Source: Candidatus Iainarchaeum sp. (GTDB lineage Archaea > Iainarchaeota > Iainarchaeia > Iainarchaeales > JAGVWC01). Taken from it: a DNA stretch of 64,000 nucleotides. Both the position numbers and the translations under genes were made by a program. The stretch is taken from the NCBI GenBank assembly GCA_018304465.1, contig JAGVWC010000009.1, positions 125,696 to 189,695 of the forward strand, read 5' to 3'. Positions 1 through 31,233 of the stretch are shown piece by piece (position 1 is the first letter of the stretch; each line of letters starts with the position of its first letter). Below the pieces are notes generated by a model. That model worked only from the letters and a program-made list of their open reading frames with translations, was not told the DNA's origin and ran no database searches.

Positions 1-3000
1 TCCACGCAAACCGCGATGGAAATCAACGATTTAAGCGTGCTTGAAAACGTCGAGCGAAAAGCCCGCATTTATTTCAAACCAGTCCAGGACGGCCCCGCGA
101 CGATTCACATGGAGTTTTTGGGCGAGGACGTCATCGTCAAAGAGGATTTCTTTTTCAATGTCGGCGAGGACAAAACCTTGTTCGTGGCGGTGGAACCCGG
201 AATCGTTAATCTGGGTTCTTCATTCAAAGTCATCGTAACGGACGACAAGAACAAAGGAGTCGAAAACGCCACGGTGCACATCCGCGATAATCTTAACGCG
301 ATCGCGTCAAGCATTGTCGGCAGTTCGTCGTTTGGAATGGGTCGCGGCGGAGAATACGGTTTTGGAACCACGATGGGCGCGGGAGAATTCACCGCTGAGG
401 TATCCGCGCCGGGTTACGAGCCGAAAACGGTTTCGTTTAGCATCAGCGCCAATGACGCGCTCAGATTGCCGGAAGAAATTATTTTGAAGATTCCGATGGG
501 ACAGCCCACCGCCAATATGGCCGTTGATTTGGAGAATATTTCCGCGGGAGTCATCCGCGATATTTCAACCGAAGTCCAGCAAAACGGTAGCTGGCCGTAC
601 GAGTTGTCCTTAAACGCGGGAACGGTTTCGAGTTTGCGCCAAGGACAAAAAGGAAAACTGGATGTCACGGGAACGTTTGCCGGGGACAGCAATCGCGTGG
701 TGCAAGGCGAAGCCGACGTAATCGTGAAAGGATACGTCACGGGCAAATATCCGGCGATCGCGTCCACGCACGTGATTGTGTCGTATAACCAGCCGTTGGA
801 TCCGCATTGTCTGGTGTTCGAACCCAAGGAATTGACCGTGTATTTGGCCGCCAACGCGCCGTATCCCGGCGTGGATGGTCTCTTAAGCCCGAACAAGTTT
901 TACTCGGATTACTCGAAATACAGCGCGTCGTACGCGCCGTATTATTCGAATACCCAGGACCAGTCGAATTACAATTCCCAGTTAAACCAAGGCCAATACG
1001 GCGCGTTGTATGACCAGTACAACACCAATGGCCAGATCAATTCGCAGATGGATCCGCGGTATTCACAGTACAACGATCCGGGATATACTCAAAACGGATC
1101 GCAGTTGTACGGCGGATCGTATTCCCAGCCCAGTAATTATTACGCGCCGTATTCGAACGTGTACGAGGATTACGATAACCAGCAAAAAGAACTGGAAATT
1201 CAGGTCAAAAACAATTGCGGCGTGGCACTGAACCTGACCGGCAAAGTTGTGGCCAAGCAAGGCGGAAACACGGACCCGTTTATTCAGGTAACGGCGCCGC
1301 CGCTGGTGTTGCAACCCAATGAATCCACGACCACGACGATTTCTGTTAGAAACCTGCGCGATCGTATCGTCAGCCGTCAGGAAACCCGAAACTTCGACAT
1401 AACGTATGCTTCGAACGCGAACCTCGCGACGCTTCCCTTGCATGTCGTGCTGTGGGATTCGCGATACGCCTTGGCGATGCGCGACAACATCGTCATGTAT
1501 TTGTCCCAAGGCGCCAAAGGCGAGCCCGTGATTTCGGCCGAACCGATTTTCGTTCGCAACGTGGGGCTTCAGGACATTGAAAACTTTAATATTTTCCTTT
1601 CCGGCGACACGTATCAAAATGGCGTGGACGTGCGGATCACACCCAGCGGAGACGTTCCGATCCTAGGACGAAACCAGGTGATTTTTCCCCCCAAGATGCT
1701 GGTCGCGGAACTGCGCGGCGGAACCGACAAAGGCCGCTTGATCCGCGCGCAAATCATCGCCACGGGAATGATTAACGGAAAAGAAATGGAACTTCGGCGC
1801 GCCAATGTGTGGATCAATGTCAGTGCGTACGAATGCCTGCGGATTTCGCCGGCGGAATCCCTTGATTTCGTCAGTCAGGAATCGCGCATCGGAACCATTG
1901 ACAAGAAAATCAAGGTGCGAAACACCTGCGAAGAAGCCGTGCGCGTCGCCGACATCCAACCCAACAAATTGGGCGCCAACGAGGTTTCGATTGTTCCGAT
2001 CGCAAGCGATATTCTCGCTCCTGACGCCGAAGCGGAGTTTTTGGTGCGCGTCGTCAAACGCCAGGATTACAAGAGCCAGAACCTGAATTTTTCGGTTGTT
2101 GGTCTCACCACGGTGTCGCGAAAATTCATCGGGTCCAATCGTCTTCATGCGCTCGTGGAACTCGGTCAAACCGCGGTGTCCACGGGGGTCTCGACCGAAG
2201 CCTACACGATCAACGTGTGCAAGGAAGACGGAACGATTTCCGCGGAAACCCGTCAAGTCAAATTCCCCAAAGTCGCGTCTACCGCCAATTGTGACAAGGC
2301 ATATTGTGACGCGGAACTTGCTGCCGAATACTTGTTGAAAAAACTGGATACCAAAATCGCCCAGGCGCGCAGCGCGATCGGATACGGAAACGGTGAAGTC
2401 ATGAATTTTTCGGATAACTGCATCGTGACCGCACAAAACCCCGTGTGTTCGTTCGGACAACTGGACCCAAAGATTCCGGAAACGTTTGACTTGTACCTGC
2501 AAAATGACCGCTTGTCCACGGACCTGTTGCAAAAAACGATTTCGGAAAAAGGAAGCGGAGAAATCAAGAATTATCAGGTGAATTATTGCGCCGGAAGCCG
2601 CTGTGACGCCCAGGCGATCGCCGCCACGGGCTACCCCAATTTGTTGATGGTAAGCGACAATATTCAGGGCTGCGGTCACTTTCGGGTTTCCATTGACGGC
2701 GCCGCGTTTGTGAACCAGAACCAGATTCGAACGGATGGATTCACGTTGGCCATTAACGTGTCGAATTACGCGGTGACCCCGGAGTGCGTGAACAAGATCC
2801 AAAACGTGCATAATTTCCTGCCGATCGACAAAACCCTGACCGCAAACAACGCGTACGGAACAATGATGGGAATGGCGGAAGCCGAAACCAAATTGCTGCC
2901 GCTTGCGGAATCGTTTGCCAAGGAGTTTTACGGAACAAGCGACGGACGTTTTTCGGAAAACAGCCAGGGAAACAAAGTACACATTGAAACCGGCGAAGTT

Positions 3001-4110
3001 CCCGGCGGAATTGTTAAAATCGGTTTGGACCCGCAGGGAACCGCAACCGATCCCAAAACGATTACCGCGACGATTAACCGCAGCATCGAAGGCGTGGATT
3101 TGACTCAAAACAACCAAAACGCGTTGTTCAAGGAAGCCGCGAACGCGTTTTCGGCTCTCAAAAGCCGCCAGATTCCGCTTGGAAAAGGATGTATTTCCCC
3201 CAACGAGGATTATTTCGTGTTGGGTTCCGCGGCCAAACTCGGGGACTTGACCGTTACCGGTCCTGACAAAATCGATGTGTTGCCGCAGTACGAAGCCTGC
3301 ATTGATCTGATCGTGAATTCCGAAATCCGAGAACAAGTGCGCTTGGAAACGAACGCCGAAGAATTGCTGCAATCAAGCAATGCGTTTGCGGAAATACTGT
3401 TAAAGAAAAAAACCGATCAGTCCTTGATAAAACCCAGCGACGACATCGTATTGGATGAGAATCCTGCGAGCAAAAAATACACGCAAGCGTTCCAATTGTG
3501 CGTCAAAGGAAGCGAATACTTCCAGTTTTCGGAATCCGCGTCCAAGATCAAGGTTTTGGCGCAATCCACCTTGGATACCGTGCGCAGAAGCAAGGAAAAA
3601 GAAATCGGCTTTCAGGCCTGCGGAATTCATCCGTATGATTTGGTGAACAAGCTGAACACGCTGGAACCCGGAAAAGAATATTACGCGACCGTGGGCTGGA
3701 AAGGCGATCCCAATGCCGTGACCTTGTCCGCCGTGATCAACGGAATGGCCGAAAAGAAATTGTTATCCAAAGAAAACACGTTGACCGGTTCCGGCGTGGA
3801 TGTCGCCAAGCAGGTTCCGGTTCAGGATGAAATCAAAAAACAAAACCTCGCGTCGATTCTCGGTTACTGGCCGGGCGGCGGCACCAAGGTGGCTAGCGCG
3901 TATCTTCCGACGTGTGTAGCCGTTTCCGCGGTCTGCAATGGTTTTAGAACCCTGGGACTCGGCGGATGGCTATGGGGCCCCATGTTTGACTGCGGATTAC
4001 CCGCGTTGTGGGCGATTTCCCCGCAAATCGGTTTGGAAGGCGCGCGCAACATGATTGAAAACGCGTTTGGTTCCTGCTGGGTCCAAGCACCACGCCAACG
4101 GACCCGTTAA
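1..4110 (+). CDS. Giant surface/envelope protein, paralog 1 (5' end outside the window; probably continues into 4134..5453)
   Basis: The frame is open from base 1. It has carboxypeptidase-regulatory/Ig-like segments (VTDDKNKGVENATVHI...EVSAPGYEP), a Y/Q/N-rich insert, and Cys motifs shared with the other giants (VKNNCG, YCDAELA..LLKK, YLQNDRLS). Confidence 0.85.
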   Translation, partial: STQTAMEINDLSVLENVERKARIYFKPVQDGPATIHMEFLGEDVIVKEDFFFNVGEDKTLFVAVEPGIVNLGSSFKVIVTDDKNKGVENATVHIRDNLNAIASSIVGSSSFGMGRGGEYGFGTTMGAGEFTAEVSAPGYEPKTVSFSISANDALRLPEEIILKIPMGQPTANMAVDLENISAGVIRDISTEVQQNGSWPYELSLNAGTVSSLRQGQKGKLDVTGTFAGDSNRVVQGEADVIVKGYVTGKYPAIASTHVIVSYNQPLDPHCLVFEPKELTVYLAANAPYPGVDGLLSPNKFYSDYSKYSASYAPYYSNTQDQSNYNSQLNQGQYGALYDQYNTNGQINSQMDPRYSQYNDPGYTQNGSQLYGGSYSQPSNYYAPYSNVYEDYDNQQKELEIQVKNNCGVALNLTGKVVAKQGGNTDPFIQVTAPPLVLQPNESTTTTISVRNLRDRIVSRQETRNFDITYASNANLATLPLHVVLWDSRYALAMRDNIVMYLSQGAKGEPVISAEPIFVRNVGLQDIENFNIFLSGDTYQNGVDVRITPSGDVPILGRNQVIFPPKMLVAELRGGTDKGRLIRAQIIATGMINGKEMELRRANVWINVSAYECLRISPAESLDFVSQESRIGTIDKKIKVRNTCEEAVRVADIQPNKLGANEVSIVPIASDILAPDAEAEFLVRVVKRQDYKSQNLNFSVVGLTTVSRKFIGSNRLHALVELGQTAVSTGVSTEAYTINVCKEDGTISAETRQVKFPKVASTANCDKAYCDAELAAEYLLKKLDTKIAQARSAIGYGNGEVMNFSDNCIVTAQNPVCSFGQLDPKIPETFDLYLQNDRLSTDLLQKTISEKGSGEIKNYQVNYCAGSRCDAQAIAATGYPNLLMVSDNIQGCGHFRVSIDGAAFVNQNQIRTDGFTLAINVSNYAVTPECVNKIQNVHNFLPIDKTLTANNAYGTMMGMAEAETKLLPLAESFAKEFYGTSDGRFSENSQGNKVHIETGEVPGGIVKIGLDPQGTATDPKTITATINRSIEGVDLTQNNQNALFKEAANAFSALKSRQIPLGKGCISPNEDYFVLGSAAKLGDLTVTGPDKIDVLPQYEACIDLIVNSEIREQVRLETNAEELLQSSNAFAEILLKKKTDQSLIKPSDDIVLDENPASKKYTQAFQLCVKGSEYFQFSESASKIKVLAQSTLDTVRRSKEKEIGFQACGIHPYDLVNKLNTLEPGKEYYATVGWKGDPNAVTLSAVINGMAEKKLLSKENTLTGSGVDVAKQVPVQDEIKKQNLASILGYWPGGGTKVASAYLPTCVAVSAVCNGFRTLGLGGWLWGPMFDCGLPALWAISPQIGLEGARNMIENAFGSCWVQAPRQRTR

Positions 4111-4133
4111 AAGCCCAGGCGCAAGAAGACATC

Positions 4134-5453
4134 GTGAATGGCGCCGTGGTTTCGGTCGGAGCAAAAACCTTATTGGGCGCCAGTTCCGAATTGTATTACG
4201 GAAATTATCGTTCGCCACTGCCGATTAACAGCGCGGCCCGCCAAATCTCCAATGACATCATTGACCAGGTCGTCACGGAAAAACTCGCCCCGATCGGAAC
4301 CCCGATCAAGGATTCTTCCGGCGCCGTAATCGGAGCCGTCAAAGCCAGTGATCACGCGGAATTCCGAAACATCTTAAAAGACAAACTCGAACCCGCGATC
4401 AAGGACGCGTTGGAAGAAAAAGGCGTCAAGAACCGCGTTCCGATTCCGGGCGCCGACAAAGTGCGAATCGCGTTAAACGATGAAAAACTCATCAACGAAG
4501 CCACGAGCACGGCGATCACGAAAGCCTCCGCGGATCTGGAAAAACCGCTGTCCGATTGGACGGTGTCGCATTCGAGCGTCTTCCAGGATCCCGTCAAGCT
4601 CGCCAAGCAAAGAGAACTCGTTTCAAGCGTCGTGGATTTATTCGGACAGGATCTTCCGCAAACCGGAAACGTCGTGGACCGGACCACGCTTGAACAAGTG
4701 TGGAACCAGCGCATGCTCGACGACTTGAAGTCTTACGGTTTGAAAGAAACCGACTTGGTTGGAACCAAATCGGTACAGCGACTGGTCGAGGAAAAAGTCC
4801 GCGCCGGCGTGATCACGGAAGGAATGCCAGTCGGGAAAAAAGTCGCGATTCAGCCGGTGTACAAATTGTTGGATCCGAAGAAAACCTACGCGAGTGTCAT
4901 CGGAGAAATTTATTCTAACGCGGAATTAGCCAAAAAACTGGATACGGGCTTTAAGGACCGTGCCGGAAAATTCGCCAAGGGATTGCTCGAAGGAAAAACC
5001 GGCGAAATCGGCGGGTTCACCCGATTCAGAAAATTCCTCGGTTCGATGGCGCGGGGTCTTGCGTGCGGTTTCATTTCGAACGCCGCGGGTCTTTGGATGT
5101 ACAAACAAGGATTGGCGGAAAACCTGAATCTGCCCGATGATAAGATCTCGGTTAAGGGACCGGCGAAAGTCAGTCCGACCGGTGGGTTGGTCGTGGACGG
5201 AACCGGAAACATCAACACGGACGCGGAGCTCTTGCGCGGACACACCTACAAAATCGTGTCGAAAAAAACCGACGACAAAACGCGTTCGATTGAAATCACG
5301 AAAGTCGCGAATATTTCGGAGCTGTCAAAGGTCCCCAAAGACGCCTGGCTTAACACGGATTGCACCGGAAAATTCGGGCAAAAAGACTTAAGCGAAGTCC
5401 TCAACGCAAAGGCGCTTGTGGGCGTAAACCTCTCGTCCACGAGAGCGTCATAA
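4134..5453 (+). CDS. Probable C-terminal part of paralog 1 (frameshifted), or a separate hypothetical protein
   Basis: The -1 frame is open from 4059 and reads FLLGPSTTPTDPLKAQAQEDIVNG. The start is a weak GTG. It contains a hydrophobic Cys segment (LGSMARGLACGFISNAAGLW). Confidence 0.7.
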   Translation: MNGAVVSVGAKTLLGASSELYYGNYRSPLPINSAARQISNDIIDQVVTEKLAPIGTPIKDSSGAVIGAVKASDHAEFRNILKDKLEPAIKDALEEKGVKNRVPIPGADKVRIALNDEKLINEATSTAITKASADLEKPLSDWTVSHSSVFQDPVKLAKQRELVSSVVDLFGQDLPQTGNVVDRTTLEQVWNQRMLDDLKSYGLKETDLVGTKSVQRLVEEKVRAGVITEGMPVGKKVAIQPVYKLLDPKKTYASVIGEIYSNAELAKKLDTGFKDRAGKFAKGLLEGKTGEIGGFTRFRKFLGSMARGLACGFISNAAGLWMYKQGLAENLNLPDDKISVKGPAKVSPTGGLVVDGTGNINTDAELLRGHTYKIVSKKTDDKTRSIEITKVANISELSKVPKDAWLNTDCTGKFGQKDLSEVLNAKALVGVNLSSTRAS

Positions 5454-5463: not shown

Positions 5464-8400
5464 ATGGTTCAGGTCACTTGGGTGAACGCGATTGGAAAAA
5501 TACTTACGATTCCTTTTTTTGTATTAATCATTAGCGGCTTTTTGTTTTTTCTGGTTTCGCAAACCAATCTGCTTTCAAACCAAAATCCAATAATTGACCA
5601 AAATGAGCAAGTCTGTGGAAACCGTGTTTGTGAATCCAACGAAAACAGTTTTACTTGTTTGTTGGATTGTTTTGCATGTAACGAAAACGGAACCTGTGAA
5701 ACCGAGATTGAAGAAAACGATTACTCATGCGAAAAAGATTGTCCGATCAGGGTGTGCAATAATGACGGAAAATGCGATCCGAAAGAAAGCCCAACCGATT
5801 GTCCAATCGACTGCGAACCAAAAACCGGCCCGTGCATCAAAGACGGATTCTGCAACAAAATCATTGGCGAAACAGTGGAAATGTGCCCGGAAGATTGCAC
5901 GGTCTTGCCCCCGGCATGCGGAGACGCAAAATGCAACGGTTCCGAAACCTGCTTTGGTTGCCAAACCGATTGCGGTTCCTGTCCCTTCAATCCAACATGC
6001 GGAAACAACATTCCTGAAGGAACCGAAGTGTGTGACGGAACCGCATTAAACGGTCAATCCTGTCAAACCAAAGGATTCGCAAGCGGAATTCTAACCTGCT
6101 TTTCCTCTTGCGATGATTTTAACACCGTCAACTGCGCGACACCGCTTCCACCTTGCGATGAAAACTGGAGCTGTGGACAATGGTCTACTTGCTCGAGCAG
6201 AGTACAAAACCGAACCTGTACTGACACCAACGGATGCAGCACCACCATTGAACAACCCGCCTTAACCCAAACCTGCAATAACGCGGTATGCGGAAACAAC
6301 TTTCGCGAAGAAGCGGAAATCTGTGACGGAACCGATTTGAATGGGCAAACCTGTCAAAGTCAAGGATTCGCCAATGGCAACGTGGCTTGCGCAACCAACT
6401 GCCAGTCATTCAACATGACAAACTGCGTCGGCGCTTCAAACGTCGAATGCGGAAATGGACTCATTGAAACCAACGAAGCTTGCGACGATTCCGACACCTC
6501 GTCCGGAGACGGTTGCAGTTCGAGTTGTCAAGTCGAATCCGGATACTGGTGCACCCGTCAACCGAGTATTTGTCAAGCCGGCGCCTGGGCCGCGCCCATC
6601 GGAATTCCAACCCCCGGATTCGGAATCGAAGAAACCTACCGAATCTACGACGACCCAACCCACCGGAATCCGGGCGTACACTACACTCAAAACGAAGAAG
6701 GGGGATACTACACGCATTACATCGATGCGACGCGTTTGACAGCAACGGATGTGGACAACCCGTTTGGATCCGTTTCAAAGCCCCGCAAAACTATTCCAAG
6801 AAACCTGTCGGCTGGAAGCGTCGTCGAGATCCATACCAGTACGCTTGCGAACTATCAAAGCAGGATCGTCGTGTCCGGTGAAGGAACGCCGCTGCAACCG
6901 ATTTTTATTCGAGGACCCGATTCTTTGCACAAACCGGTTTTGAACAACACGGTGGAAGTCGGATTTATCGATCGAAACGGAAGGTACATCATCATTGAAA
7001 ACCTGGACGCCCCTCACATTTCGATTCGGTCAAGAGGCGTAGACGATTACAAGGCCGATCACATCGCTGTTCGGCATTCCGAGATTCATCATGGCTCGGG
7101 AACAAGTGCAAATGCCTATTCTTCCGACATCGTGATTTTCAATAACCATATTCACGATGGGGGCGATTGGACTGCGGATTATGAAAGCAACGTGTCCGGT
7201 GTTTCGGCGGGTTCAAACACCCTGCGAGTCTGGATTTTGGATAATGACATTCATCATTTCGGAAGCGATTCCATGATCATCAGCGGTGCGGGGGTGTTGT
7301 ACGAAAACGCCGCTCGTTTCATTTACATTGGACGGAACAATTTGCATCACAACGGCGAGAACGCGGTTGATGTCAAACGTGCGCGTGATGTCATCATTTC
7401 CCAGAACACGATCCATGATTTTCGCGAACCATACGCGGTCGGCGGAAGCGCGGCGAGCCGCCCGGGAATTGTTATTCACGATCGTCCGGAAAACGTTTGG
7501 ATTTTGTTCAATCGTTTTTACAATATTGGAAACGCGGTGACCGCAGCAACCGAACGGGGAACGTTGGCCATGATTGGAAACGTGGTGCAAGAAGGGGGCG
7601 ATAACCGACCCATTGTCCAGCTGAGCGCCGGCGATAGTGACCTGGGTTACAAGAGCAAGATCATTTTTGCGCACAATACGTTGTTCAATGTGGCCAACGG
7701 GCTGTCCTTAGGAGGAAACGACACGATTTCCGTTGGCGGAAACATCATTGACGGCATCAGTCAAAATTCTAGCAGCCAGCACATCCGATTCTCGGGGCCC
7801 GTGGACAGTCCGTGGAACCTGAATTACTCTTTGTTCGGCGGCCCCGGCACGAAAGCCAAGATCGGCTGGGGAACCTCGGTTTCTCGCGATGTTGTAACAC
7901 TTGGACAGGATTATTCCGGACAATGCGCCGGCTGTCTGGAAACCAGCCCCCAATTCGTCAATGCTCCGTTTTCCAGTGTTTGGGTGGATACGTTTTTCAA
8001 AGCAACGTATTCGAATGCGGAAATGACCGAAATCAATCGCACCGGTGTCCCGGATTCCGCCCGCATCCGAACCACACTGCGAGTGCCAGGGCAGGATTTT
8101 TCCGCGGTGGGAATTCGAATCGGAGATCATGTGAAAATGAACAGCGGAACGGGCGTGGTTACCTCTTTACTTTCAACCGACAATCCCAACCTCAAGATTG
8201 GTGCAATCAATGGTGACACCCTTACGCTGAACCGAGACATTACCCTTTCGCCTTCCTCGGACGTATCGTTTTCGGTTTCGTATTATCCAACCACCCGAAC
8301 CGACGTGTATCTTGCGGACGTATCCGGTTTTGCTGTGGGGGACAAGGTAGAATTTGGAAACGACAACGTCGCACGCACCGTCTCTGCCATCACAGCGGAC

Positions 8401-8664
8401 AGCAAGGGATCAAAAATCGTTTTTTTCCCTCCCACTCCAGACCCCATTTATCCCTATCGTTTTTTATCCAACTGGAAGCAAAACACCCGTGTGGTGGAAG
8501 ATTTCCGAGTGAAGTCCGCTTCGCTTGCCGAAAACGCAAGCATCGAAGGCAACTACTACGCGTTATTCGAGTCACTGTACGGGATTGACATCCGAAAAGA
8601 TTTCGATGGAAAAATCCGTCCGCGGGGAAGCCAGTGGGACATCGGGGCATTCGAACGTTCGTAA
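5464..8664 (+). CDS. Membrane-anchored Cys-rich repeat protein with a right-handed beta-helix (pectin-lyase-like) domain
   Basis: N-terminal TM helix, then CGN..E.CD repeats (DUF4215-like CGNGLIETNEACDDSDTSSGDGCSSSC), a TSP1-like WSCGQWSTC motif, beta-helix repeats (IFNNHIHD, ILDNDIHH, ISQNTIHD) and a C-terminal DFDGKIRP...WDIGAFE motif. Confidence 0.8.
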   Translation: MVQVTWVNAIGKILTIPFFVLIISGFLFFLVSQTNLLSNQNPIIDQNEQVCGNRVCESNENSFTCLLDCFACNENGTCETEIEENDYSCEKDCPIRVCNNDGKCDPKESPTDCPIDCEPKTGPCIKDGFCNKIIGETVEMCPEDCTVLPPACGDAKCNGSETCFGCQTDCGSCPFNPTCGNNIPEGTEVCDGTALNGQSCQTKGFASGILTCFSSCDDFNTVNCATPLPPCDENWSCGQWSTCSSRVQNRTCTDTNGCSTTIEQPALTQTCNNAVCGNNFREEAEICDGTDLNGQTCQSQGFANGNVACATNCQSFNMTNCVGASNVECGNGLIETNEACDDSDTSSGDGCSSSCQVESGYWCTRQPSICQAGAWAAPIGIPTPGFGIEETYRIYDDPTHRNPGVHYTQNEEGGYYTHYIDATRLTATDVDNPFGSVSKPRKTIPRNLSAGSVVEIHTSTLANYQSRIVVSGEGTPLQPIFIRGPDSLHKPVLNNTVEVGFIDRNGRYIIIENLDAPHISIRSRGVDDYKADHIAVRHSEIHHGSGTSANAYSSDIVIFNNHIHDGGDWTADYESNVSGVSAGSNTLRVWILDNDIHHFGSDSMIISGAGVLYENAARFIYIGRNNLHHNGENAVDVKRARDVIISQNTIHDFREPYAVGGSAASRPGIVIHDRPENVWILFNRFYNIGNAVTAATERGTLAMIGNVVQEGGDNRPIVQLSAGDSDLGYKSKIIFAHNTLFNVANGLSLGGNDTISVGGNIIDGISQNSSSQHIRFSGPVDSPWNLNYSLFGGPGTKAKIGWGTSVSRDVVTLGQDYSGQCAGCLETSPQFVNAPFSSVWVDTFFKATYSNAEMTEINRTGVPDSARIRTTLRVPGQDFSAVGIRIGDHVKMNSGTGVVTSLLSTDNPNLKIGAINGDTLTLNRDITLSPSSDVSFSVSYYPTTRTDVYLADVSGFAVGDKVEFGNDNVARTVSAITADSKGSKIVFFPPTPDPIYPYRFLSNWKQNTRVVEDFRVKSASLAENASIEGNYYALFESLYGIDIRKDFDGKIRPRGSQWDIGAFERS

Positions 8665-22942: not shown

Positions 22943-25900
22943 CGATTAAAACCGCGGATTGCGGCGGTGCCACGTCGTTTTCGCTTGAATCGGAACTCAA
23001 GTTGTCGCCAACCGAGTTTTCGCTTTCGGATAACGGCGCTCAGCAAATCGTGATTACGGCCGATGACCGCGTTCCGGGTCAGTACGGCGTCAAAGTGCTG
23101 GTCAAAGGCGCGGGAGCGGTCACGACCAAGCAAATCAAAACGATTCCGGTCGTATTGGCCCCCGCGCGCGATGAATGCGTGTTGTTGACCAAATTTGAAT
23201 ACAACGTGTTCCGAAACGAAGATGTTCCGGGATCCGGAATCGATACCGCGAAAGTCATTAATCAGTGTTATGACAAACCCGTGCAAGTCATGATTGATCG
23301 GCATTCGTTAGACGATGCCATGGCGGAAGGACAACGATGGGCGGCAATGGGGCTTGCCATGGGAATGATGGGCCAAATGAACCAGAATGGCGGGTTGTTT
23401 AGCGGTTTGTTTGGCGGGTCCAGCAATGATTCGAACGCATCTCCGGGGTCCGGCAGCAATTCGAACACGCCTCCGGCTTGGAAAGAGTTCAAGGACGCGG
23501 GAACCGTATTGGTCGCGAACGGAACCGGCGGATTTGTTTCGGCCAATGCCTATAAAGACAACGCGGGAAATGAGTTCGTGTTTGAAAACGGCATGTATTA
23601 TCCAGTACGGCAACGATCCGACGGAAGATATGAAAAGGTTCCAAACGGAGCCCCCGTTGCCTCAAACGGATCCGTGGGTTCGACGGCCACCGGTCCGAAC
23701 GCAAGCGTCATTGCGCAAAAAGAATCCGAAATCGCGCAGTTGAACAGTCAGATTTCATCCGAACAAGCGAGCGCGACGAGTCTGGGTTGCCCCAATGGAA
23801 AGCCCGAGTGCCAAACCAGTATCGATCGCATTCATAGTCTGAACGTTCGGATCAGTTCTTTGGAGTCCGAAATCAGTGGATTGCAAACCACACCGCTCAC
23901 GGGACGGTTTTCATTGACGGGTTATCAGTTCTTGCCGTTTGCAGGCCAGGGTTTCTTCGGTTCCGGTTCAACGAATTCGGACGCGGAAAACGAATGTAGT
24001 TTTGTGGATTCGGATGGAACGCTTTCCAAGAGCCGGCAAGACGCGGACAGCGAAATTTCGTCTTTGCAAACGTTACCGATGTTCGCGAGTCTTTTGGGCG
24101 GCGGAAACATGGGCAATGCGTTTTCGCAGGCCATGATGATGTATGCCATGGGAACCGCGCAAGCCTACAATGCCCAAACCGATGTTTGCATCTGGACCGT
24201 GCAACGCGACGTTCAATTGGGTTCCGGTGGACTAGGCGGTGTACTGGATAATTTGGCGAGTTTTTTCACCGGAAACCAGGCCAAAGGCGTTTACAAATTA
24301 TTGGATTCCACGGGAATTGACGACCGGGTGTTTTCCGGCGTCAGTGTGGAAGAATACCGAAAACCCATTGTGTCGCCGCGCAAAGACAATCAGGAATTAA
24401 GCACGGAAACGCGGTTCATCAAGGTTTCAAACGACGACGGTTTGGTCCAGGCAGACGCCTTGAATCCGTTGTTTGCCATGCTGGCGATTAACGGCGTTCG
24501 CCACGTGTATTTGCCTGAACAAATCTACGAAAGCCAAAAGCCCAGCGTGTTAAAGGAAGGCCCCAGTCAAAAGCTTTCATCGAAGTTTCATATTCAATTG
24601 AATTCGTATAAGCCCGAACCGGATTCCGTGATTTCTCCAGAGATCGGCAACTGCCAGATCGGACAAAAAATCGGTAGCACGGGTCCGAACGCGGTTCCAC
24701 GCCTCAAATTCGCGTGGGGTTGGAACGAAATCAATTTCGATTCGTGCGATTCGGATAATCCGGAGTATATTTATTGTGACGCCACGCAGTTTTCGATCGC
24801 GTTATTGAAAAAAATGGAAGTGTTACGCGAATTCACGACCGTGAACGCCTTGACGTTCGAGTGTCCATCCGCAGTCAGCTCCGTGACCCCGACCGAACAG
24901 GCGTTGTCCAAAACGGGTCTTGACATCGGCGTGACCAAACTTGAAATCGTGCGAAACCAATTGGATGCAAACATGGTGGCCACGGTTGAAAATTCGAACA
25001 ATGTATCGGGTTCCGCGGAATTGACCACGATTATTACGAATACCGCCAATGGAAAAGTCGAAAAAACCTGTATCGAAACGGTTTCGTTTCTATCGAAAAC
25101 CACGTCCGGTTGTCTGGTGCAAAATCTGGCCCCGGGCGAATACCGCGTCAAAGCGCTGTTGGGCGCCGTGTCATGCACGGGCTGCCAAAACGCCGTGAGC
25201 TTTAACGATTCTTTGGAAGACACGTTTACCACGGGCTTTGAAGGACTTGCGTGCGCCGCCAACTGGACCAATACGAGTCATTTGGAAGAAATCATCGCGG
25301 CTACCGAAGGCGCGTCCAAATCATTGGTGTATCCGGCGGGCTTTGACAAGGAAAAAATCGTCAAACTTGCCAGTTTTAGGGCGCACTTGATGAAAGACGG
25401 GTATTCAACCGGTTTTCGAAAAGATTTCCATTCGTATGCTTTGACGCAATCCTTGTTCCAGACGCCTGAGTTTTATTCGCAACCCGATGGGTTAGGCGAA
25501 TATTTCTCGGATCCCGCCAAAATGCAGTTTGAATACTTCGGCAGTCCGAATGGAACGCTTTCAGAACCCGGCATTTACCAAGTGGACCTCGACGTGAATT
25601 TTTCGGATCAGCACATGGCATGGTTCGAGAACTCGACCCCCGTCGCCACGATTTTGGTGACCATGGAAAAAACCGGGGACGCAAAGCCCGCGAGCCCGTT
25701 TTATTATTATCCATTGGACGGCGCATTGGGATTGCAAAACGGCCGCGTGGGATACGGAACCAACTTCGAGTTGGAAACCCCGGACAAACCCATCGTGATT
25801 GCGGCAACGGTTGACCGCGCGTTGTTGTCGCAATCGATTCCGGGAAGCATTCCGGCGGCAACCGTCAAAGCATATAAAATCACGGACTTTGCGACGTTGA

Positions 25901-26571
25901 ATGTTTCAAACCGTGGATTGTTGTTTTCCATTGATTCGCAAACCGATGAATGGAAACTCGCGCCAAGCCTCGCGACCCCGGTGATCATGAAAGTATCCGC
26001 GACCAGTACCGCGGACGCGTTTGGATTTTATTCTTTGGAAGTGGATTCTCAACCGCAAACGAATCTTCCGTTCTTGTCGCGCTGGAGCGGAATCTCGCCG
26101 TCTTGCAAGGACTTTGCCGGAGACGGTTTGGATAAGTATTCGGAAACCCCGGATATTTCGGGGGTCAATGCCCATTGTTCGGCGTTGGGTCCCAACAGCG
26201 CGGTGTCATACGGATTCGAATGGTGTAACCGCAAGTTGCCGGGAACGGTTTCGTTGCAATCCGTGTTTTTTACGCCCACTGAAAGCAGCGCGGTATTGCG
26301 TTTGACGGGTCAAAACGAATCCGTTTCGTTTATCGGTTTACAGGGAAGCGGTCAAAACGTGGAATTGGCCGGAGTCCCCGGAATGGCATTCAATAGTCAT
26401 TCGAACGCGATTTCTTCGGTTCAGGATGTATTAGACCTGGTAGCGGAAGGCCAAGTGTGTGTCACGGGATCGGAAAACGCGGTTCGAACCGAGTTTTTCT
26501 GGAACCCCAAAGTGGTGTTGGATGGCTTAGCGCAGGTACGCGACGCGACCACGCAGGCATGCATCCAATAA
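22939..26571 (+). CDS. Giant surface protein, paralog 3, C-terminal part (likely joined to 18920..22942 by a -1 frameshift)
   Basis: Collinear with the C-terminal half of 10365..18179 (TGP.A, YCDATQF..LLKK, LMKDGYS, GQVC...FFWNPK). It has a TTG start and no signal peptide. Confidence 0.85.
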   Translation: MTIKTADCGGATSFSLESELKLSPTEFSLSDNGAQQIVITADDRVPGQYGVKVLVKGAGAVTTKQIKTIPVVLAPARDECVLLTKFEYNVFRNEDVPGSGIDTAKVINQCYDKPVQVMIDRHSLDDAMAEGQRWAAMGLAMGMMGQMNQNGGLFSGLFGGSSNDSNASPGSGSNSNTPPAWKEFKDAGTVLVANGTGGFVSANAYKDNAGNEFVFENGMYYPVRQRSDGRYEKVPNGAPVASNGSVGSTATGPNASVIAQKESEIAQLNSQISSEQASATSLGCPNGKPECQTSIDRIHSLNVRISSLESEISGLQTTPLTGRFSLTGYQFLPFAGQGFFGSGSTNSDAENECSFVDSDGTLSKSRQDADSEISSLQTLPMFASLLGGGNMGNAFSQAMMMYAMGTAQAYNAQTDVCIWTVQRDVQLGSGGLGGVLDNLASFFTGNQAKGVYKLLDSTGIDDRVFSGVSVEEYRKPIVSPRKDNQELSTETRFIKVSNDDGLVQADALNPLFAMLAINGVRHVYLPEQIYESQKPSVLKEGPSQKLSSKFHIQLNSYKPEPDSVISPEIGNCQIGQKIGSTGPNAVPRLKFAWGWNEINFDSCDSDNPEYIYCDATQFSIALLKKMEVLREFTTVNALTFECPSAVSSVTPTEQALSKTGLDIGVTKLEIVRNQLDANMVATVENSNNVSGSAELTTIITNTANGKVEKTCIETVSFLSKTTSGCLVQNLAPGEYRVKALLGAVSCTGCQNAVSFNDSLEDTFTTGFEGLACAANWTNTSHLEEIIAATEGASKSLVYPAGFDKEKIVKLASFRAHLMKDGYSTGFRKDFHSYALTQSLFQTPEFYSQPDGLGEYFSDPAKMQFEYFGSPNGTLSEPGIYQVDLDVNFSDQHMAWFENSTPVATILVTMEKTGDAKPASPFYYYPLDGALGLQNGRVGYGTNFELETPDKPIVIAATVDRALLSQSIPGSIPAATVKAYKITDFATLNVSNRGLLFSIDSQTDEWKLAPSLATPVIMKVSATSTADAFGFYSLEVDSQPQTNLPFLSRWSGISPSCKDFAGDGLDKYSETPDISGVNAHCSALGPNSAVSYGFEWCNRKLPGTVSLQSVFFTPTESSAVLRLTGQNESVSFIGLQGSGQNVELAGVPGMAFNSHSNAISSVQDVLDLVAEGQVCVTGSENAVRTEFFWNPKVVLDGLAQVRDATTQACIQ

Positions 26572-26618: not shown

Positions 26619-27038
26619 ATGGTGCCTATGATCACGGGTTTTGACATTATGGCCGTTTTTGCGGACTTTAACCTGATCCTAAAACTATTTGTTTTGATCA
26701 TGATTATTTCGTTTGTCAAAAGCCATTTGGGCGGAGGCCCTTTGGCGACCATGGTCATGGTGTTCATTGCTTTTTTCGTTATTTTCGACGCGTGGAAGAT
26801 TTTTGGCGGAATTTATCTTTTGTACGCCATTATCACGTTAGGGTTTTCCGGGTTATTGATTGATTTTTTCTTTGTTACGCCGCCGTTGGCCAATCAGCGG
26901 GAAAATCCCGAATCGGATGCGGGAGAAGGCATCAACAGTCAGGATGTCAAGGAACGGATTAACCGTTTGCATATGGCCGGGGGTCGCGCAGGCCATCATG
27001 GCGGTCGCCCGCCGGGTCCGCCGCCCATGATGGGATAA
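26619..27038 (+). CDS. Small membrane protein, family A member 1
   Basis: 3-4 TM segments, motif FVKSHLGGGPLATMVMVFIAFFVIF, C-terminal GPPPMMG. Confidence 0.8.
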   Translation: MVPMITGFDIMAVFADFNLILKLFVLIMIISFVKSHLGGGPLATMVMVFIAFFVIFDAWKIFGGIYLLYAIITLGFSGLLIDFFFVTPPLANQRENPESDAGEGINSQDVKERINRLHMAGGRAGHHGGRPPGPPPMMG

Positions 27039-27050: not shown

Positions 27051-27371
27051 ATGAATCAAAAAGGAAACCTTGTACTGTTTGGACTGCTGGGACTGGTACT
27101 CGTCGGCGTGGTGTCTTTCCTTATTATCATGTTTGTTCCGCAAGCCGCGATTCTGATGCGCATCGTCCTGGTTTTTGCGATTTTCATGACGGTGCGCGGC
27201 GCGATCGGAGACGGTACTCCAACGTTGTTGATTTCCGCGATTTTGATTTATTTTTTGGCATTCAAGTATTTTGAATTGGCGGCCGCGGGCTATGTGGTGT
27301 ATTTCATGGTCGCGTATACGGGTACGACGTTGTTTAGTTTTGGATTGCGTTTTTTCTTCGGAAAGCATTGA
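27051..27371 (+). CDS. Small membrane protein, family A member 2
   Basis: Motif TVRGAIGDGTPTLLISAILIYFLAFKY. The N-terminus MNQKG|NLVLF resembles a class III signal. Confidence 0.8.
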   Translation: MNQKGNLVLFGLLGLVLVGVVSFLIIMFVPQAAILMRIVLVFAIFMTVRGAIGDGTPTLLISAILIYFLAFKYFELAAAGYVVYFMVAYTGTTLFSFGLRFFFGKH

Positions 27372-27381
27372 GGGATGAAAC

Positions 27382-27627
27382 ATGGTGTCAAGCGTTTGGT
27401 TGGATTCGTTGTTTGGAAACCTGGAGATCGCCTTGATTTTGTTTTTTTTCGTATGGCTTTTTTCGTGGGCCAAAGGAAGTCTTGGAAGCGAAAAACTCGC
27501 GGTTTTTTTCGCGATCCTGATCATTTACTTGACGGTGTTCCAGTATCGGGAATTGATTTGGATTGCCGTGGCGTTGTTTTTGTTGTCGACGTTTGGAAAA
27601 GAGTTGTTTTCGAAATTGTCAAAGTGA
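27382..27627 (+). CDS. Small membrane protein, family A member 3
   Basis: Motif WAKGSLGSEKLAVFFAILIIYLTVFQY; purine-rich RBS upstream. Confidence 0.8.
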   Translation: MVSSVWLDSLFGNLEIALILFFFVWLFSWAKGSLGSEKLAVFFAILIIYLTVFQYRELIWIAVALFLLSTFGKELFSKLSK

Positions 27628-27639
27628 AACACAGAGGGA

Positions 27640-27954
27640 TTGTCGTTGGAAACCATGAATTTGTTGATCGCGGTGGTGCTCATGCTCCTCGGAGCCACGT
27701 ACAGCGAGTTTTGGATCGTAATCGGAATCGCGGCCATCATGGTGTTAACAGAGCGGAATCTTTCGACGTTTGTCATGATGACGTTGGCGATTGTCTTAAT
27801 TTACGGGTTTAAAGGCGTGCTATCCGACTACATTCCCCATATCCTGCTCGGAATGATTATTTTGGCGTTGGTGTTCAACAAGCCCGCGCAGCAACCCCAG
27901 GGAATGGATATGGGCGGATTGGAAGGATTATACGGTCCGCCGCCCATGGGGTAA
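27640..27954 (+). CDS. Small membrane protein, family B member 1
   Basis: IAVVLMLLGATYSEFW motif, about 4 short TM segments, C-terminal GPPPMG. Confidence 0.75.
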   Translation: MSLETMNLLIAVVLMLLGATYSEFWIVIGIAAIMVLTERNLSTFVMMTLAIVLIYGFKGVLSDYIPHILLGMIILALVFNKPAQQPQGMDMGGLEGLYGPPPMG

Positions 27955-27966
27955 CGAGGCGGTTTT

Positions 27967-28542
27967 GTGGATATCGATATTTTCGGGATTGTCATCGCGT
28001 TTTGCCTGATTTTGTTGGGGGCCGTGTCCGAGCGCTGGTGGTTTGTTTTTCTTTCGGCGCTCGTGTTTTTCGCGTTGTTTCCGACCATTACCACGTTTTG
28101 GATCCTGGTAGGCGCCATTATCCTCAGTTACATTTGGGCGAATTCGTTTGACGAGTTGTCGTCCCAGGGATTTTTGCTGATCATTGTTTTGATCGGAAGC
28201 GCGGTCATCGCGATTTCGCTGGGTGAAGTGTTCATTGGATTGTTGTTGTCCTTGGCGTTGGTGTTCTTGTTTTTGTTAACGCCAAGCGTGAAATTAAGCA
28301 AGAAAGTGTCGCGAAAAGCGCGTGAAGAATTCGACGATATTCACGCGGGTTTGAAAAAAACCAAGGGACAGCATCCGGATTTGTTCGGAACCGTGGAAAA
28401 TCTTTCCAAGGACACCGGAGCGATTGCGGGAGAAGCGTGGGTCACGAATCCGAATCAAAAACTGGTTTCAAACGATTTGGTGACCCGGATTTCTCAGGGA
28501 TCGAAAAACCTGTTGGACGGATTGGGAAAACTGTTCAAATAG
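27967..28542 (+). CDS. Membrane protein, family B member 2, with a soluble C-terminal tail
   Basis: IAFCLILLGAVSERWW motif, multiple TM segments, amphipathic C-terminus (NLLDGLGKLFK). Confidence 0.8.
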   Translation: MDIDIFGIVIAFCLILLGAVSERWWFVFLSALVFFALFPTITTFWILVGAIILSYIWANSFDELSSQGFLLIIVLIGSAVIAISLGEVFIGLLLSLALVFLFLLTPSVKLSKKVSRKAREEFDDIHAGLKKTKGQHPDLFGTVENLSKDTGAIAGEAWVTNPNQKLVSNDLVTRISQGSKNLLDGLGKLFK

Positions 28543-29073
28543 TTATTTTCGTTCTTGTAGTTCGGTAACGATTTGGCGGTTGGTGTCCAGCAATTTGTCC
28601 ATGATGGTTTTGTAGGCGGCCATTTGGGTTTTCATGTCGTTGATTTCGTTTTCGAATCCGGCGATCCGGTTTTCGACGCGCGTGATGGAATCGCTTAATT
28701 GCAAGGCCGGCAATTCCGATATTTTGGCGAGTTTGGCGTCAAGGGATCGGAATTCTTCCAAAAGATTTTGAATCTGTTCGCTTTGTTCTTCGAGTACCAC
28801 GTGCGTGGTCGCGTGCAAGGCTTCATCGTGGCTGGATTGGGGGGTTTGCGGCAATCCGGGTTCTTCGTCGTCTTCGGTTTCAAAATCGTCCGTTTCATCC
28901 GAAGAATTGGTTGAAACGGAGGGAGTAGACGCGGTTTGTCCGCCTTGGAGGTATTCGTTTACTTCGTCTTTGCTTAAACCGATGTCTTGTAACGTGGATT
29001 CGATGACGTGGTCGCTGATGCCAGACGATCGCATGCGCTGGATTGTTTCCATGACGACTTGTTTGTCCACCAT
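28543..29073 (-). CDS. Acidic coiled-coil protein
   Basis: Small N-terminal helical domain, D/E-rich linker and a heptad-repeat C-terminus. Confidence 0.8.
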   Translation of the reverse strand: MVDKQVVMETIQRMRSSGISDHVIESTLQDIGLSKDEVNEYLQGGQTASTPSVSTNSSDETDDFETEDDEEPGLPQTPQSSHDEALHATTHVVLEEQSEQIQNLLEEFRSLDAKLAKISELPALQLSDSITRVENRIAGFENEINDMKTQMAAYKTIMDKLLDTNRQIVTELQERK

Positions 29074-29205: not shown

Positions 29206-30717
29206 TTGAAGACGCCGGGCGGTCCGTGGGAAACGGTGTTTGCGGCCCAACAACCCGATGTGGATATTCGGGTGGAATTCAATGAAGAATCCCTGTTGCT
29301 GGTCAGCGTAACCGAAAAAAAGGACGGGAAAAACACAGGAGTCGTGTTGGATTTATTTCGGGCGTTTGTTTCCGAGACCAATCCCCAGACCTTGATTGAA
29401 AAGCTTCCGTTTCCCTGCATCGAATTCGGATTGCATACGGATGGATCCACGACGTACTGGATCGTGCTCGTGGACAGCGGAACGGTTTTTTCCGAACCGG
29501 ATGAAGGAAAAATTTCGCGCTTGTTTTCCGAACAGAAAAAAAAACTGGAATCGATCGAAGAACAATTAAAACCCAGCGTGTTGGCGTTGGACCACAAATT
29601 CGAGTGGCTTAGTCACGCGCCGATGGATGTGCGAAGCGCGTTTTTCGGATCGCTTTTGGTGCCTCCGATGATTGTTTCGCGAACAAAAACGGGTCCCGCG
29701 CAACAGGCCCCGGTTGCGGTTTCGGGAACGATCATGCGTTTTGGGGAAATGAAAGTCGGCAAGACAAAAGACGGCGCCTTGGTACGCGAACCATTGGTGT
29801 TGCTGAAAAAAACGATTATCGTTGGCGGGACTCCAAAAGACCGTTCACGCGTACTGCGCGTCTTGATCGAAAGCGTGTTGTTATCCGGATCGGCGGCTGT
29901 GATCGTTGACTCGCAGAATTCGTTTTCGGGTTTGCGCGAACCCAATCCGAATGCCGCGGAAGTCGCGGAAAGCGGTTTTGAATTGACTCCGATCGGTTTT
30001 CCAACCGAAGAATTCGAGGTTCCGAACAAGTTATGGGTGAATTTTTCGAACTTGGACATCGAATCGATGCTGGAATTGTATCGCGTCGGAAAAACTCCCG
30101 CGGCCAAAGTAATCAAAATGGTGTTTGATTTAGGCGTTGCCGCAAACTGGCGACAGCTGGTTGACACGATCAAGATTCAGTCCCCGGCCGCGGACGTGAC
30201 GCGTTTTCATTTGAACAAGGCGATGCGTCTTGCCGCGCTAATCGATAACAGTTATCCGGGTTCTTTTAACGGTCCGAATAATATGTCGAATATCGCGCGT
30301 TCGCTTGAAACCGGTTTGGGCCGAGCGGCGATCGTTCATACGGACAAGATGGATAATCGATTGCGGTTGCTTGTTTTGCACGGGCTTGTGCGCGAATTAC
30401 GGCATTTTTTCGAACAATCGCCGAATCGTCAACCCTTGTCGTGCATGCTTTTTTTGCCGCAGGCCTCCGAGTTTTTTCCGTTTCGCGAAACCGCGCGAAT
30501 TTCAAGGGTAATCGAGGAAGACCTCAACGCGATGGTGAACTTCGGCGTAGGCGTCACCGTGGTCGCGGAAAAAGGAATGGATTTGCACGAAACGATTCCG
30601 CGACAGATGGATTCGGAGTTTTCGATTGTTTCGGGAAAAGACGTGGGGCTTCGGATCGAAAAAAGAAAACCGTATCGCGTGATCATCCGAAATCCGCTGA
30701 GCCGATTGTCCGAATAA
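29206..30717 (+). CDS. HerA/FtsK/VirB4-superfamily (DUF87/DUF853-like) P-loop protein with degenerate motifs
   Basis: TIIVGGTPKDRS sits at the Walker A position, AVIVDSQNSFSGL matches hhhhDxxGE(Y/F), MLFLPQASEF sits at Walker B, and NFGVGVTVVAE matches (R)K(F/Y)GhGhhhxxQ. Confidence 0.65.
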   Translation: MKTPGGPWETVFAAQQPDVDIRVEFNEESLLLVSVTEKKDGKNTGVVLDLFRAFVSETNPQTLIEKLPFPCIEFGLHTDGSTTYWIVLVDSGTVFSEPDEGKISRLFSEQKKKLESIEEQLKPSVLALDHKFEWLSHAPMDVRSAFFGSLLVPPMIVSRTKTGPAQQAPVAVSGTIMRFGEMKVGKTKDGALVREPLVLLKKTIIVGGTPKDRSRVLRVLIESVLLSGSAAVIVDSQNSFSGLREPNPNAAEVAESGFELTPIGFPTEEFEVPNKLWVNFSNLDIESMLELYRVGKTPAAKVIKMVFDLGVAANWRQLVDTIKIQSPAADVTRFHLNKAMRLAALIDNSYPGSFNGPNNMSNIARSLETGLGRAAIVHTDKMDNRLRLLVLHGLVRELRHFFEQSPNRQPLSCMLFLPQASEFFPFRETARISRVIEEDLNAMVNFGVGVTVVAEKGMDLHETIPRQMDSEFSIVSGKDVGLRIEKRKPYRVIIRNPLSRLSE

Positions 30718-30720
30718 GAT

Positions 30721-31233
30721 TTATTTCCGTTTTTTCATTTTTTGTTCGAATAATTCGTCGAATTGTTTTAAGGTAATAAAATCCATGGGATTGATCGTGT
30801 CAATCACGTATTTCATTTCTTTGAGCGCTTCGATTTTGGCGTAATGTTCTTTGACGTCGGATAATTCGTTTTGGAGTTCGAGCATTTTTTGGGCTTGGGT
30901 TTCGACTTTTGCGGACAAATCTTTGAGCAGAACCGCGGTTTCGACGGAAACGCCGGAATTTTGTCCGCCGCCAATGCCGTTCGATTCGATTTCGCGGATG
31001 CGCTTGGATAAAACAATCAGGTTTCGGCCCAGGATTTTTTCATTGCGCACGAGGTACTGCATTTTTTGGCTTAAAATCAATACGCTGGAATTTAAGGCGC
31101 GGATGTCGGCTTGAAGTTGAGAAAAAACCGTGGCGGTTTGGGTTTGGGACGGCATTGAAGCGGGTCGACTGGTTTGGCCCGCAGACGCCGGTTGGCTGGG
31201 GGGCGCGGTTTGGACTCGTCGTTCGTGCACCAT
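30721..31233 (-). CDS. Coiled-coil protein of unknown function
   Basis: Heptad repeats; C-terminal KEMKYVIDTINPMDFIT motif. Confidence 0.75.
   Translation of the reverse strand: MVHERRVQTAPPSQPASAGQTSRPASMPSQTQTATVFSQLQADIRALNSSVLILSQKMQYLVRNEKILGRNLIVLSKRIREIESNGIGGGQNSGVSVETAVLLKDLSAKVETQAQKMLELQNELSDVKEHYAKIEALKEMKYVIDTINPMDFITLKQFDELFEQKMKKRK

Follow-up and report, generated by a model that had tools for sequence, protein, structure and literature searches.

Several described systems come close to the locus discussed here, a block of cell-surface genes at the beginning of a 64,000-nucleotide stretch of the genome of Candidatus Iainarchaeum sp. (hereafter, the window), which occupies positions 125696-189695 of contig C13. 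The Ced system is the DNA importer of crenarchaea and includes CedA, CedA1, CedA2 and CedB; the scaffold of the archaellum combines the RecA-like protein FlaH with the coiled-coil proteins FlaX/FlaCDE; and the degenerate FtsK-like domains of the type VII proteins EccC/EssC bind substrate signals. It is still an open question how DPANN archaea construct their surface and fasten themselves to other cells; for the Iainarchaeota we know of neither a culture nor a structure.

As to the lineage itself, one sentence of a paper of 2018 mentions five proteins of more than 1,800 amino acids (aa) encoded in a 42-kbp region of Candidatus Forterrea (PMC5905446). The window has in common with that cluster the Diapherotrites/Iainarchaeota lineage, the clustering of giant membrane-anchored proteins (several of those encoded here exceed 1,800 aa as well) and the guess at cell-cell interaction; the published account differs in that "pili" and "HerA" are absent from its main text, and the passage concerned is silent on the tail motif, the tiny membrane proteins and the coiled-coil genes described below (PMC5905446). 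Full-text searches of the literature, supplements aside, yielded no other description of the block, and passages of PMC5498576, PMC9938205, PMC8561730, PMC9258230 and 10.1101/2024.05.28.596244 contain nothing on it. Except for the one sentence on giants, this cell-envelope gene set appears to be new to print.

The window represents most of a conserved cell-surface block of Iainarchaeota, in which two linked modules can be told apart. Module A comprises the giant proteins, the pilin-like protein g04, the membrane protein g06 with four transmembrane (TM) helices, and the small membrane proteins F0a and F0b; module B comprises the small membrane proteins F0c, F1 and F2, the coiled-coil proteins g13 and g15, and g14, a protein of the HerA fold. 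The block takes up ~5% of a 1.25-Mb genome (15 contigs, ~48% G+C, completeness 91.9%), is kept phylum-wide and contains at least seven protein families without named relatives.

Composition and conservation of the block

Genes of the block and the adjoining polymerase gene (window coordinates, strand, description):
1..4110, +, g01, giant 1: last 1,369 of the 2,237 residues of a protein with the N-terminal tail motif, one TM helix and immunoglobulin (Ig)-like repeats
4134..5453, +, g02, 439 aa: C-terminal part of giant 1, detached and in a frame other than that of g01
5464..8664, +, g03, 1,066 aa: N-terminally anchored cysteine-rich-repeat surface protein
8755..10257, +, g04, 500 aa: large type-IV-pilin-like protein with a class III signal-like N-terminus
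10365..18179, +, g05, giant 2, 2,604 aa: conserved N-terminal tail of 45 residues, a single TM helix, a stalk of Ig-like repeats and a C-terminal half with cysteines
18247..18852, +, g06, 201 aa: four TM helices; sits between giants 2 and 3
18920..22942, +, g07, 1,340 aa: N-terminal half of giant 3 (from BLASTP to g05 and Pfam)
22939..26571, +, g08, 1,210 aa: C-terminal half of giant 3 (from collinearity with g05)
26619..27038, +, F0a (g09), 139 aa: three TM helices and a Gly/Pro-rich tail; trio member 1; moves with the giants
27051..27371, +, F0b (g10), 106 aa: trio member 2; moves with the giants
27382..27627, +, F0c, 81 aa: trio member 3; remains with the HerA-like gene
27640..27954, +, F1 (g11), 104 aa: three TM helices and a Gly/Met-rich tail
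27967..28542, +, F2 (g12), 191 aa: TM helices and a conserved ~70-aa soluble C-terminal region
28543..29073, -, g13, 176 aa: acidic linker between a small conserved N-terminal domain and a coiled coil
29206..30717, +, g14, 503 aa: predicted HerA-fold pseudo-ATPase (~178-503) with an alpha/beta N-terminal domain (1-~130)
30721..31239, -, g15, 172 aa: coiled-coil protein with an invariant helix motif
31293-33734, family-B DNA polymerase (PolB): Pfam 1e-62; an M24 peptidase gene stands next to it

The 13 open reading frames (ORFs) of the plus strand stand in series over positions 1-28542 with spacers of -4 to 107 nucleotides (nt), and the co-oriented run of ~28.5 kb with short spacers, claimed in a preliminary description made from the sequence alone, is confirmed; g13, g14 and g15, on the minus, plus and minus strand, respectively, follow it. 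An Arg-rich ORF of 145 aa at 27375-27812 was discarded as spurious, the conserved ORFs of 81 aa and 104 aa in other frames being preferred.

Homologues of g14 were found in 38 of 41 relatives and in 191 of the 201 phylum genomes sampled, including all 58 of high quality, and those of g15 in 184 of the 201 (56 of the 58); both are single-copy core genes of very small genomes. Twenty of the 38 relatives' loci, picked for long contigs, were sampled, and 17 of them contain two tandem giants, the small membrane genes and then g13, g14 and g15 in the order of the window, a recurrence beyond what chance would give. The order F0a-F0b-F0c-F1-F2 is retained in 17 of the 20 loci, the F1 family is present in 19, and a homologue of g13 stands at the same place in all 20. 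The part from F0c to g15 is inverted between its flanks in G029, while G032 and G005 have no giant within 14 kb, their giants being 130 kb and 300 kb away, respectively. The pattern holds in other orders of the class as well: in G041, giants and small membrane genes are found with g13-g15 and PolB, and in G046 the locus consists of a pilin-like gene (751 aa), F0a, F0b, two further membrane genes, g13-g15 and PolB, the tail-bearing giants being on other contigs.

The public loci considered were the best 80 of 152 anchored on the g15 alignment; they overlap with the sampled genomes and are related, so that they are not independent. Here g14 comes after g15 in all 69 loci with room for it, and of the 42 in which the sequence extends 4.5 kb or more past g13, 33 contain F0a/F0b and 31 a giant. 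Records with the block include, for example, CP010424.1 and CP064981.1; three contigs are labelled Micrarchaeota, which is only the depositors' labelling. Five contigs with g15, g14 and PolB (L067, L107, L123, L129 and L130), deposited under Thaumarchaeota, Falkowbacteria or Chloroflexi bins, are probably mis-binned contigs of Iainarchaeota. On the whole, co-conservation and linkage of the families hold phylum-wide, the point on which the preliminary description had staked its proposal of one apparatus; the set can nevertheless come apart, as the two modules are separate in G005, in G032 and in nine of the 42 public loci.

Proteins of the two modules

The giants of the window are 2,237 aa, 2,604 aa and, in two pieces, 1,340+1,210 aa long and have one N-terminal TM helix each. 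That they are three paralogues, as proposed earlier, is supported by BLASTP (g05 versus g07, 27% identity over 1,373 aa, E 2e-114; g01 versus g05, E 2e-27; g01 versus g07, E 2e-14), with the corrections that giant 1 starts outside the window, its ORF beginning 2,603 nt upstream, and that giant 3 is split. Pfam recognises CarboxypepD_reg (1e-26), bMG3, SpaA and SdrD_B in g05 and CarboxypepD_reg (1e-23) in g07; the CarboxypepD_reg match of g01 is below the cut-off. Each giant carries a conserved N-terminal tail of ~45 residues, in which Y11, E15 and P45 are invariant among the 34 tails aligned. The profile of this tail detected the motif in all five genomes of other orders, where the ORFs that bear it are 1,021-2,769 aa long (of the nine matches one is weak, E 0.003), while a query with the 723-aa head domain found giants in only two of the five. 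Giants occur throughout the class, several to a genome: besides the three of the window, a second array of four paralogues is located on contig C11 (14.6-42.7 kb), with no copies of the small membrane genes or g13-g15. Among the nine relatives whose loci were extended, orthologues of giant 1 (2,252-3,444 aa) occupy the same position in eight, and four giants are consecutive in six.

Two of the ORFs listed are pieces of giants. No Pfam or NCBIfam family was found in g02; its residues 299-425 align with giant 1 of G017 (3,444 aa; residues 2786-2918) and with that of G027 (residues 2553-2665). Since g02 matches the C-terminal region of giant 1 of the relatives, we regard it as a detached C-terminal piece of this protein; giant 1 thus seems to be split too (window 4108-4134), g02 being in another frame. 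As g08 is collinear with residues 1467-2603 of g05, i.e., with its C-terminal half, and relatives have single ORFs of 2,206-3,253 aa in place of g07 and g08, these two make up one giant of ~2,550 aa. The stop of g07 and the start of g08 overlap (TTGA), and a stop in the g08 frame is located at 22930. Contigs assembled from other runs differ exactly at this junction: those of runs X3 and X4 have 45 extra letters at 22936, that of run X5 ends loosely there with 28 letters that read as open in the g08 frame, the pieces listed for run X7 start only at 22956, and none of the other-run pieces listed reproduces the junction of the window. For this reason the split is probably a strain indel or an assembly fault, and it may be absent from the population; in other samples g07 and g08 are probably a single gene.

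The third long protein, g03, has a TM helix at 13-31 and a cysteine-rich repeat (TIGR02232, E 8.5e-13, NCBIfam), and its paralogues are encoded on contigs C14, C15, C7, C1, C12 and C4. No counterpart was found at the equivalent place in the relatives examined; g03 is an insertion specific to this genome and lies outside the conserved block. In the slot of g06, five relatives have a multi-TM ORF of 154-170 aa, whose sequence similarity to g06 is not significant.

The N-terminus of g04 is MNQRAFNLFTALVSFVLIML, with a hydropathy peak at 7-25, i.e., a basic residue, Gly/Ala, a cleavage-site-like motif and a hydrophobic helix, as in pilins. The motif [KR][GA]-F-[NT]-L-F-[TS]-A-L followed by a hydrophobic helix occurs at the same place in all seven relatives examined, which agrees with the class III signal recognised in the preliminary description. 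No family model of Pfam or NCBIfam, for pilins or otherwise, matches g04; its gene stands between giants 1 and 2 in seven of the nine extended loci. The cognate machinery, namely prepilin peptidase, T2SSE ATPase and T2SSF platform protein, is all found in the genome. Two prepilin peptidase genes are located on contig C6 (PF01478, above the cut-off), and a divergent type IV pilus operon, the obvious partner of g04, lies outside the window, 6.5-16.6 kb upstream of its start. It encodes five pilin-like small ORFs, a 789-aa T2SSF and a 1,286-aa T2SSE (the latter two genes at 6.5-12.7 kb). The T2SSE gene (L056:9617-13477, minus strand; 6.5-10.4 kb upstream) is interrupted by an intein with a LAGLIDADG endonuclease (Intein_splicing, 1e-22; LAGLIDADG_3, 3e-17), and its orthologues in relatives are 759-765 aa long; a T2SSF homologue is located upstream of the giants in five of the seven relatives whose loci reach far enough. 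Prepilin-like protein, T2SSE, T2SSF and prepilin peptidases are what the genome shares with archaeal type IV pili and the archaellum; unlike in these systems, the globular part of g04 amounts to ~450 aa, g14 is not a relative of KaiC/FlaH, and archaellin genes are absent. A second set of type IV filament genes is located ~24-28 kb upstream of the window (L057:1824-5817, plus strand) and consists of T2SSE (Pfam 4e-34), two T2SSF and then a gene of the PAC2 family.

After the last giant, five ORFs of 81-191 aa encode the small membrane proteins. The preliminary description had divided them into families of three and two, and this holds by hhalign, with the 81-aa F0c as the third member of the trio: F0a-F0b and F0a-F0c are paired with probabilities of 97.9% and 95.2%, and the remaining pair with 72%; the relation between F1 and F2 is weak (73%, E 3e-5). 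The genes of F0c, F1 and F2 are directly upstream of g13-g14 both here and in relatives. Where giants, g15 or PolB have moved (G005, G029, G032, G046), small membrane genes stay beside g13-g14; in particular, F0c is kept there in G029, G032 and G005, and in G032 and G005 F0a immediately follows the last giant. None of the five proteins has a Pfam or NCBIfam family at E <= 0.01; at the 0.05 threshold F0c gives one permease match at the level of chance (E 0.021). Homology to VirB2, VirB3, VirB6 or CedA was not found by sequence search, which is weak for proteins of 80-190 aa.

The coiled-coil protein g15 is the best conserved of the set, with a mean column identity of 40% and an invariant helix motif (consensus QKxKYxVRNEKILGRN), and its Atlas clusters comprise Iainarchaeota only. 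Profile searches of the Protein Data Bank (PDB) with g13 and g15 returned only generic coiled coils. Sub-threshold NCBIfam matches to ASRP, IcmG/DotF, TraP and LafA, which scored 16-19 bits where the cut-offs are 135-365, were put down to noise from the coiled coils, and an Atlas cluster FlaC_arch for g15, with a score of 0.81, is below the accepted level and is taken as a lead only.

Between these two coiled-coil genes stands g14, which the preliminary description had considered a P-loop protein of the HerA/VirB4 type; its fold and its flanking genes were rightly named, while its Walker A and B motifs turned out to be degenerate. In the AlphaFold2 model (mean predicted local distance difference test score, pLDDT, of 85) the core has the RecA-like HerA fold: the top 15 Foldseek matches are all HerA entries (E 2.5e-14 to 9e-11), and VIA gives Z 26.2 to HerA 4d2i (chain B; root-mean-square deviation 3.0 over 282 residues), followed by HerA or HerA-like rows with Z 24.7-22, VirB4 4ag5 with 22.4, TrwB with ~17 and 5fv0 with 15.2. 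By sequence, neither Pfam (E <= 0.01, DUF87 and HerA_C included) nor NCBIfam identifies a family in g14, and HerA is reached by profile searches only: the family profile finds 4d2i in the PDB at E 1.5e-5. The nearest Atlas clusters carry DUF87/HerA_C. With the HerA translocases (4d2i of Sulfolobus solfataricus; also 7wrw and 9x1m) g14 thus shares the fold of the core (~178-503) and a weak profile relation; it differs from them in the lost Walker residues, in an N-terminal domain that the searches made did not match to those of HerA and in its membrane-protein neighbours, and no NurA, Mre11 or Rad50 genes are located beside it.

Instead of the Walker A consensus GxxxxGK[ST], the family has "ggekkdRk" opposite the GSTGTGKS of a canonical DUF87-type ATPase of the same genome. 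The lysine is replaced by Arg213, kept in at least 90% of 20 sequences, with no conserved glycine loop or lysine. In place of Walker B (hhhhDE), "lPeae" stands opposite the IDEAH of the canonical ATPase, the Asp being replaced by Pro418, also kept in at least 90% of the 20 sequences, and the next residue is Gln in this genome. More distant family members show the same degenerate pattern. Judging by these alignments, g14 is a pseudo-ATPase whose residues for ATP hydrolysis have been lost family-wide.

The N-terminal domain of g14, modelled alone, is of the alpha/beta type (pLDDT 86, predicted template modelling score 0.81). Foldseek finds nothing for it at E <= 0.001, and among the VIA matches listed there is no N-terminal domain (HAS barrel) of HerA. 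The best chains are like YbjN or class I type III secretion chaperones (4h5b, 3epu, 5fr7, 1s28, 9uwz, 1xkp, 3kxy, 4g6t, 1jyo); the domain aligns over its whole length with six of these nine (Z 7.0 for 4h5b, 6.8 for 3epu, 6.7 for 5fr7, 6.3 for 1s28, 5.8 for 9uwz and 5.7 for 1xkp), all below the meaningful Z of 8. Unlike those chaperones, to which it has no sequence similarity, the domain is fused to a HerA-like core, and the modelled likeness may be taken as a lead only. EccC/EssC (5fv0) offer another parallel, that of a non-catalytic domain of the FtsK/HerA superfamily which could recognise a short signal on exported proteins; in contrast to them, g14 is only distantly related, is not fused to an active domain and is not itself membrane-anchored, and its binding of the giants' tails is conjectural. 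Complex prediction for g14 with the N-terminal tail of the giants (residues 1-48) had a score of 0.00, i.e., gave no answer, and is evidence neither way.

The homologue search with the g14 alignment returned five proteins, all unnamed or "hypothetical", and a related-loci search with the single g14 protein returned no relative; a profile search of 1.84 billion representatives yielded 183 proteins at E <= 1e-30 and 605 representatives at E <= 0.001. The small membrane, coiled-coil and HerA-like proteins have no Pfam or NCBIfam families, and no PADLOC families were found in those scanned (g13, g14, g15, F2 and F0a), which is in line with the earlier statement that the set matches no named system. 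A HerA defence system (SIR2-HerA, DUF4297-HerA) or a prophage was considered and rejected on account of these PADLOC results and of the core status of the genes in the phylum.

Possible functions of the block

In the best reading that we can propose, which we hold tentatively, module B is a non-motor membrane base organising giant surface fibres. A HerA-like ring of g14, braced by the coiled-coil proteins g13 and g15, would rest on a membrane platform of F0c, F1 and F2; via the F0 paralogues, and possibly via the cytoplasmic tails of the giants, the base would put the giant fibres and the pilin-like protein in place at the envelope or assemble them there. By analogy, its counterparts would be the scaffold components of the archaellum or of the inner-membrane complex of type IV secretion systems (T4SS), and not the motors of these; a RecA-fold protein with coiled-coil partners, as in the archaellum scaffold, is available here as a possible non-motor scaffold. 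A link between module B and the membrane proteins is favoured because F0c is paralogous to F0a and F0b, and because small membrane genes stay beside g13-g14.

Several points weigh against such a base. Contact between any two proteins of the block, the formation of hetero-oligomers and contact with a host are inferred, and the cytoplasmic location of the giants' tail is deduced from predicted topology. Modules A and B are 130-300 kb apart in two single-contig genomes (G032 and G005), and in the nine public loci where they are not adjacent the giants and F0a/F0b are elsewhere and F0c/F1/F2 are beside g14. PolB follows g15, divergently, in 17 of the 20 relatives' loci (and in one more, inverted) and in 61 of the 63 public loci with room, versus 31 of 42 for the giants, and the M24 peptidase gene follows PolB in 13 of the 20. 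Functionally unrelated genes hold their order as well as the giants or better, and therefore synteny alone cannot show one machine; the location of g13 and g15 on the opposite strand means, moreover, that the set is not one operon. The same adjacency of PolB and the same separations speak for two unrelated systems that merely share an inherited order, with module A as a surface-adhesin/fibre cluster and module B as a housekeeping cell-cycle complex on a dead FtsK/HerA-type ring, co-regulated with PolB and with a role in, e.g., anchoring the chromosome, segregation or division. Every relative of the g14 core with a solved structure is a DNA translocase or a coupling protein, and the status of g14 and g15 as single-copy core genes of very small genomes suits this explanation too. 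We nevertheless consider it somewhat less likely than a membrane base: the paralogy of F0c with F0a and F0b ties module B to module A, the small membrane genes remain with g13-g14 when PolB or g15 leave (G005 and the inversion in G029), the ATP site of g14 is dead, so that this protein should not pump DNA, and the adjacency of PolB and M24 shows that order may be kept without obvious shared function.

The layout of small hydrophobic proteins encoded beside a HerA/VirB4-fold protein, known from the T4SS inner-membrane complex (VirB3/VirB4; 4ag5, 8rtd) and from Ced, had led the preliminary description to a T4SS- or Ced-like conduit, in which a small hydrophobic channel and a HerA/VirB4-type ATPase would move DNA or cargo to or from a host. 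The gene neighbourhood is as described, the Z score of VirB4 4ag5 (22.4) is near that of HerA (26.2), and the upstream type IV pilus ATPase could in principle give energy. This part of the earlier proposal nonetheless fails on the catalytic motifs, which are lost across the g14 family: with the Walker A lysine and the Walker B aspartate gone, g14 cannot be the pump of a conduit. In addition, no relation of the small proteins to VirB or Ced families is detectable by sequence, no T4SS or Ced family of Pfam or NCBIfam was found in any of the 13 proteins scanned, the Pfam scan of the block turned up no transfer gene, such as one for a relaxase or a coupling protein, and g14 belongs to a core chromosomal set of the whole phylum in single copy, not to a mobile element; a conduit is therefore very improbable. 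It is also unlikely, and not exclusive of the other readings, that the giants are a plain surface-layer (S-layer)-like coat, with the tiny membrane proteins as anchors or insertion helpers and no contact apparatus at all. The giants are universal in the class and multicopy, Ig-like repeats are common in archaeal S-layer proteins according to 10.1101/2024.05.28.596244, and no other coat protein is evident, since the Methanosarcina-type S-layer domain PF07752 (MSTP/DUF1608) was not found at E <= 0.01 anywhere in this genome of 91.9% completeness (the control search in Methanosarcina acetivorans was positive). On the other side, an N-terminal anchor, lengths of 2,200-2,600 aa and three to seven divergent paralogues (~25% identity) fit fibres better than a lattice, and a pilin-like protein is embedded among the giants. 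A bolder version of the membrane base, a new envelope assembly machine, would have the chaperone-like domain of the dead ring recognise the 45-residue signal of the giants, the ring pass them on to a hetero-oligomeric platform of the five tiny membrane proteins, with the adjacent pilus ATPase as the sole source of energy, and the giants together with the pilin forming a host-contact organelle; we give it little credence.

If the two modules do cooperate as a membrane base with its fibres, the block would open a way to the contact apparatus of an entire archaeal phylum and would show a motor ATPase that has become a scaffold. Should they be independent, these minimal cells would still have, in the dead HerA ring and its partners of the membrane and coiled-coil types, an unexplained core component.

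Neighbouring genes and other observations

The ORFs of PolB, the gene downstream of g15, are ~1,200-1,270 aa long in the relatives G015 (56183-59950), L111, L114, L119 and L135 versus ~800 aa elsewhere; these lengths suggest inteins or insertions. On the other side of the block, 2.6-5.4 kb upstream of the window (L056:14554-17373, plus strand), a 176-aa membrane protein with a sub-threshold match to Exosortase_EpsH (E 0.038, 13.8 bits) is encoded, and directly after it a cysteine-rich secreted protein of 748 aa. At the C-terminus of the latter are a Pro-Glu-Thr motif, a hydrophobic helix and a basic tail. The two proteins are a possible pair of archaeosortase and substrate. At the far end of the window, a long ORF of 1,479 aa (55690-60129, plus strand) is located in a stretch richer in G+C (0.54-0.55).

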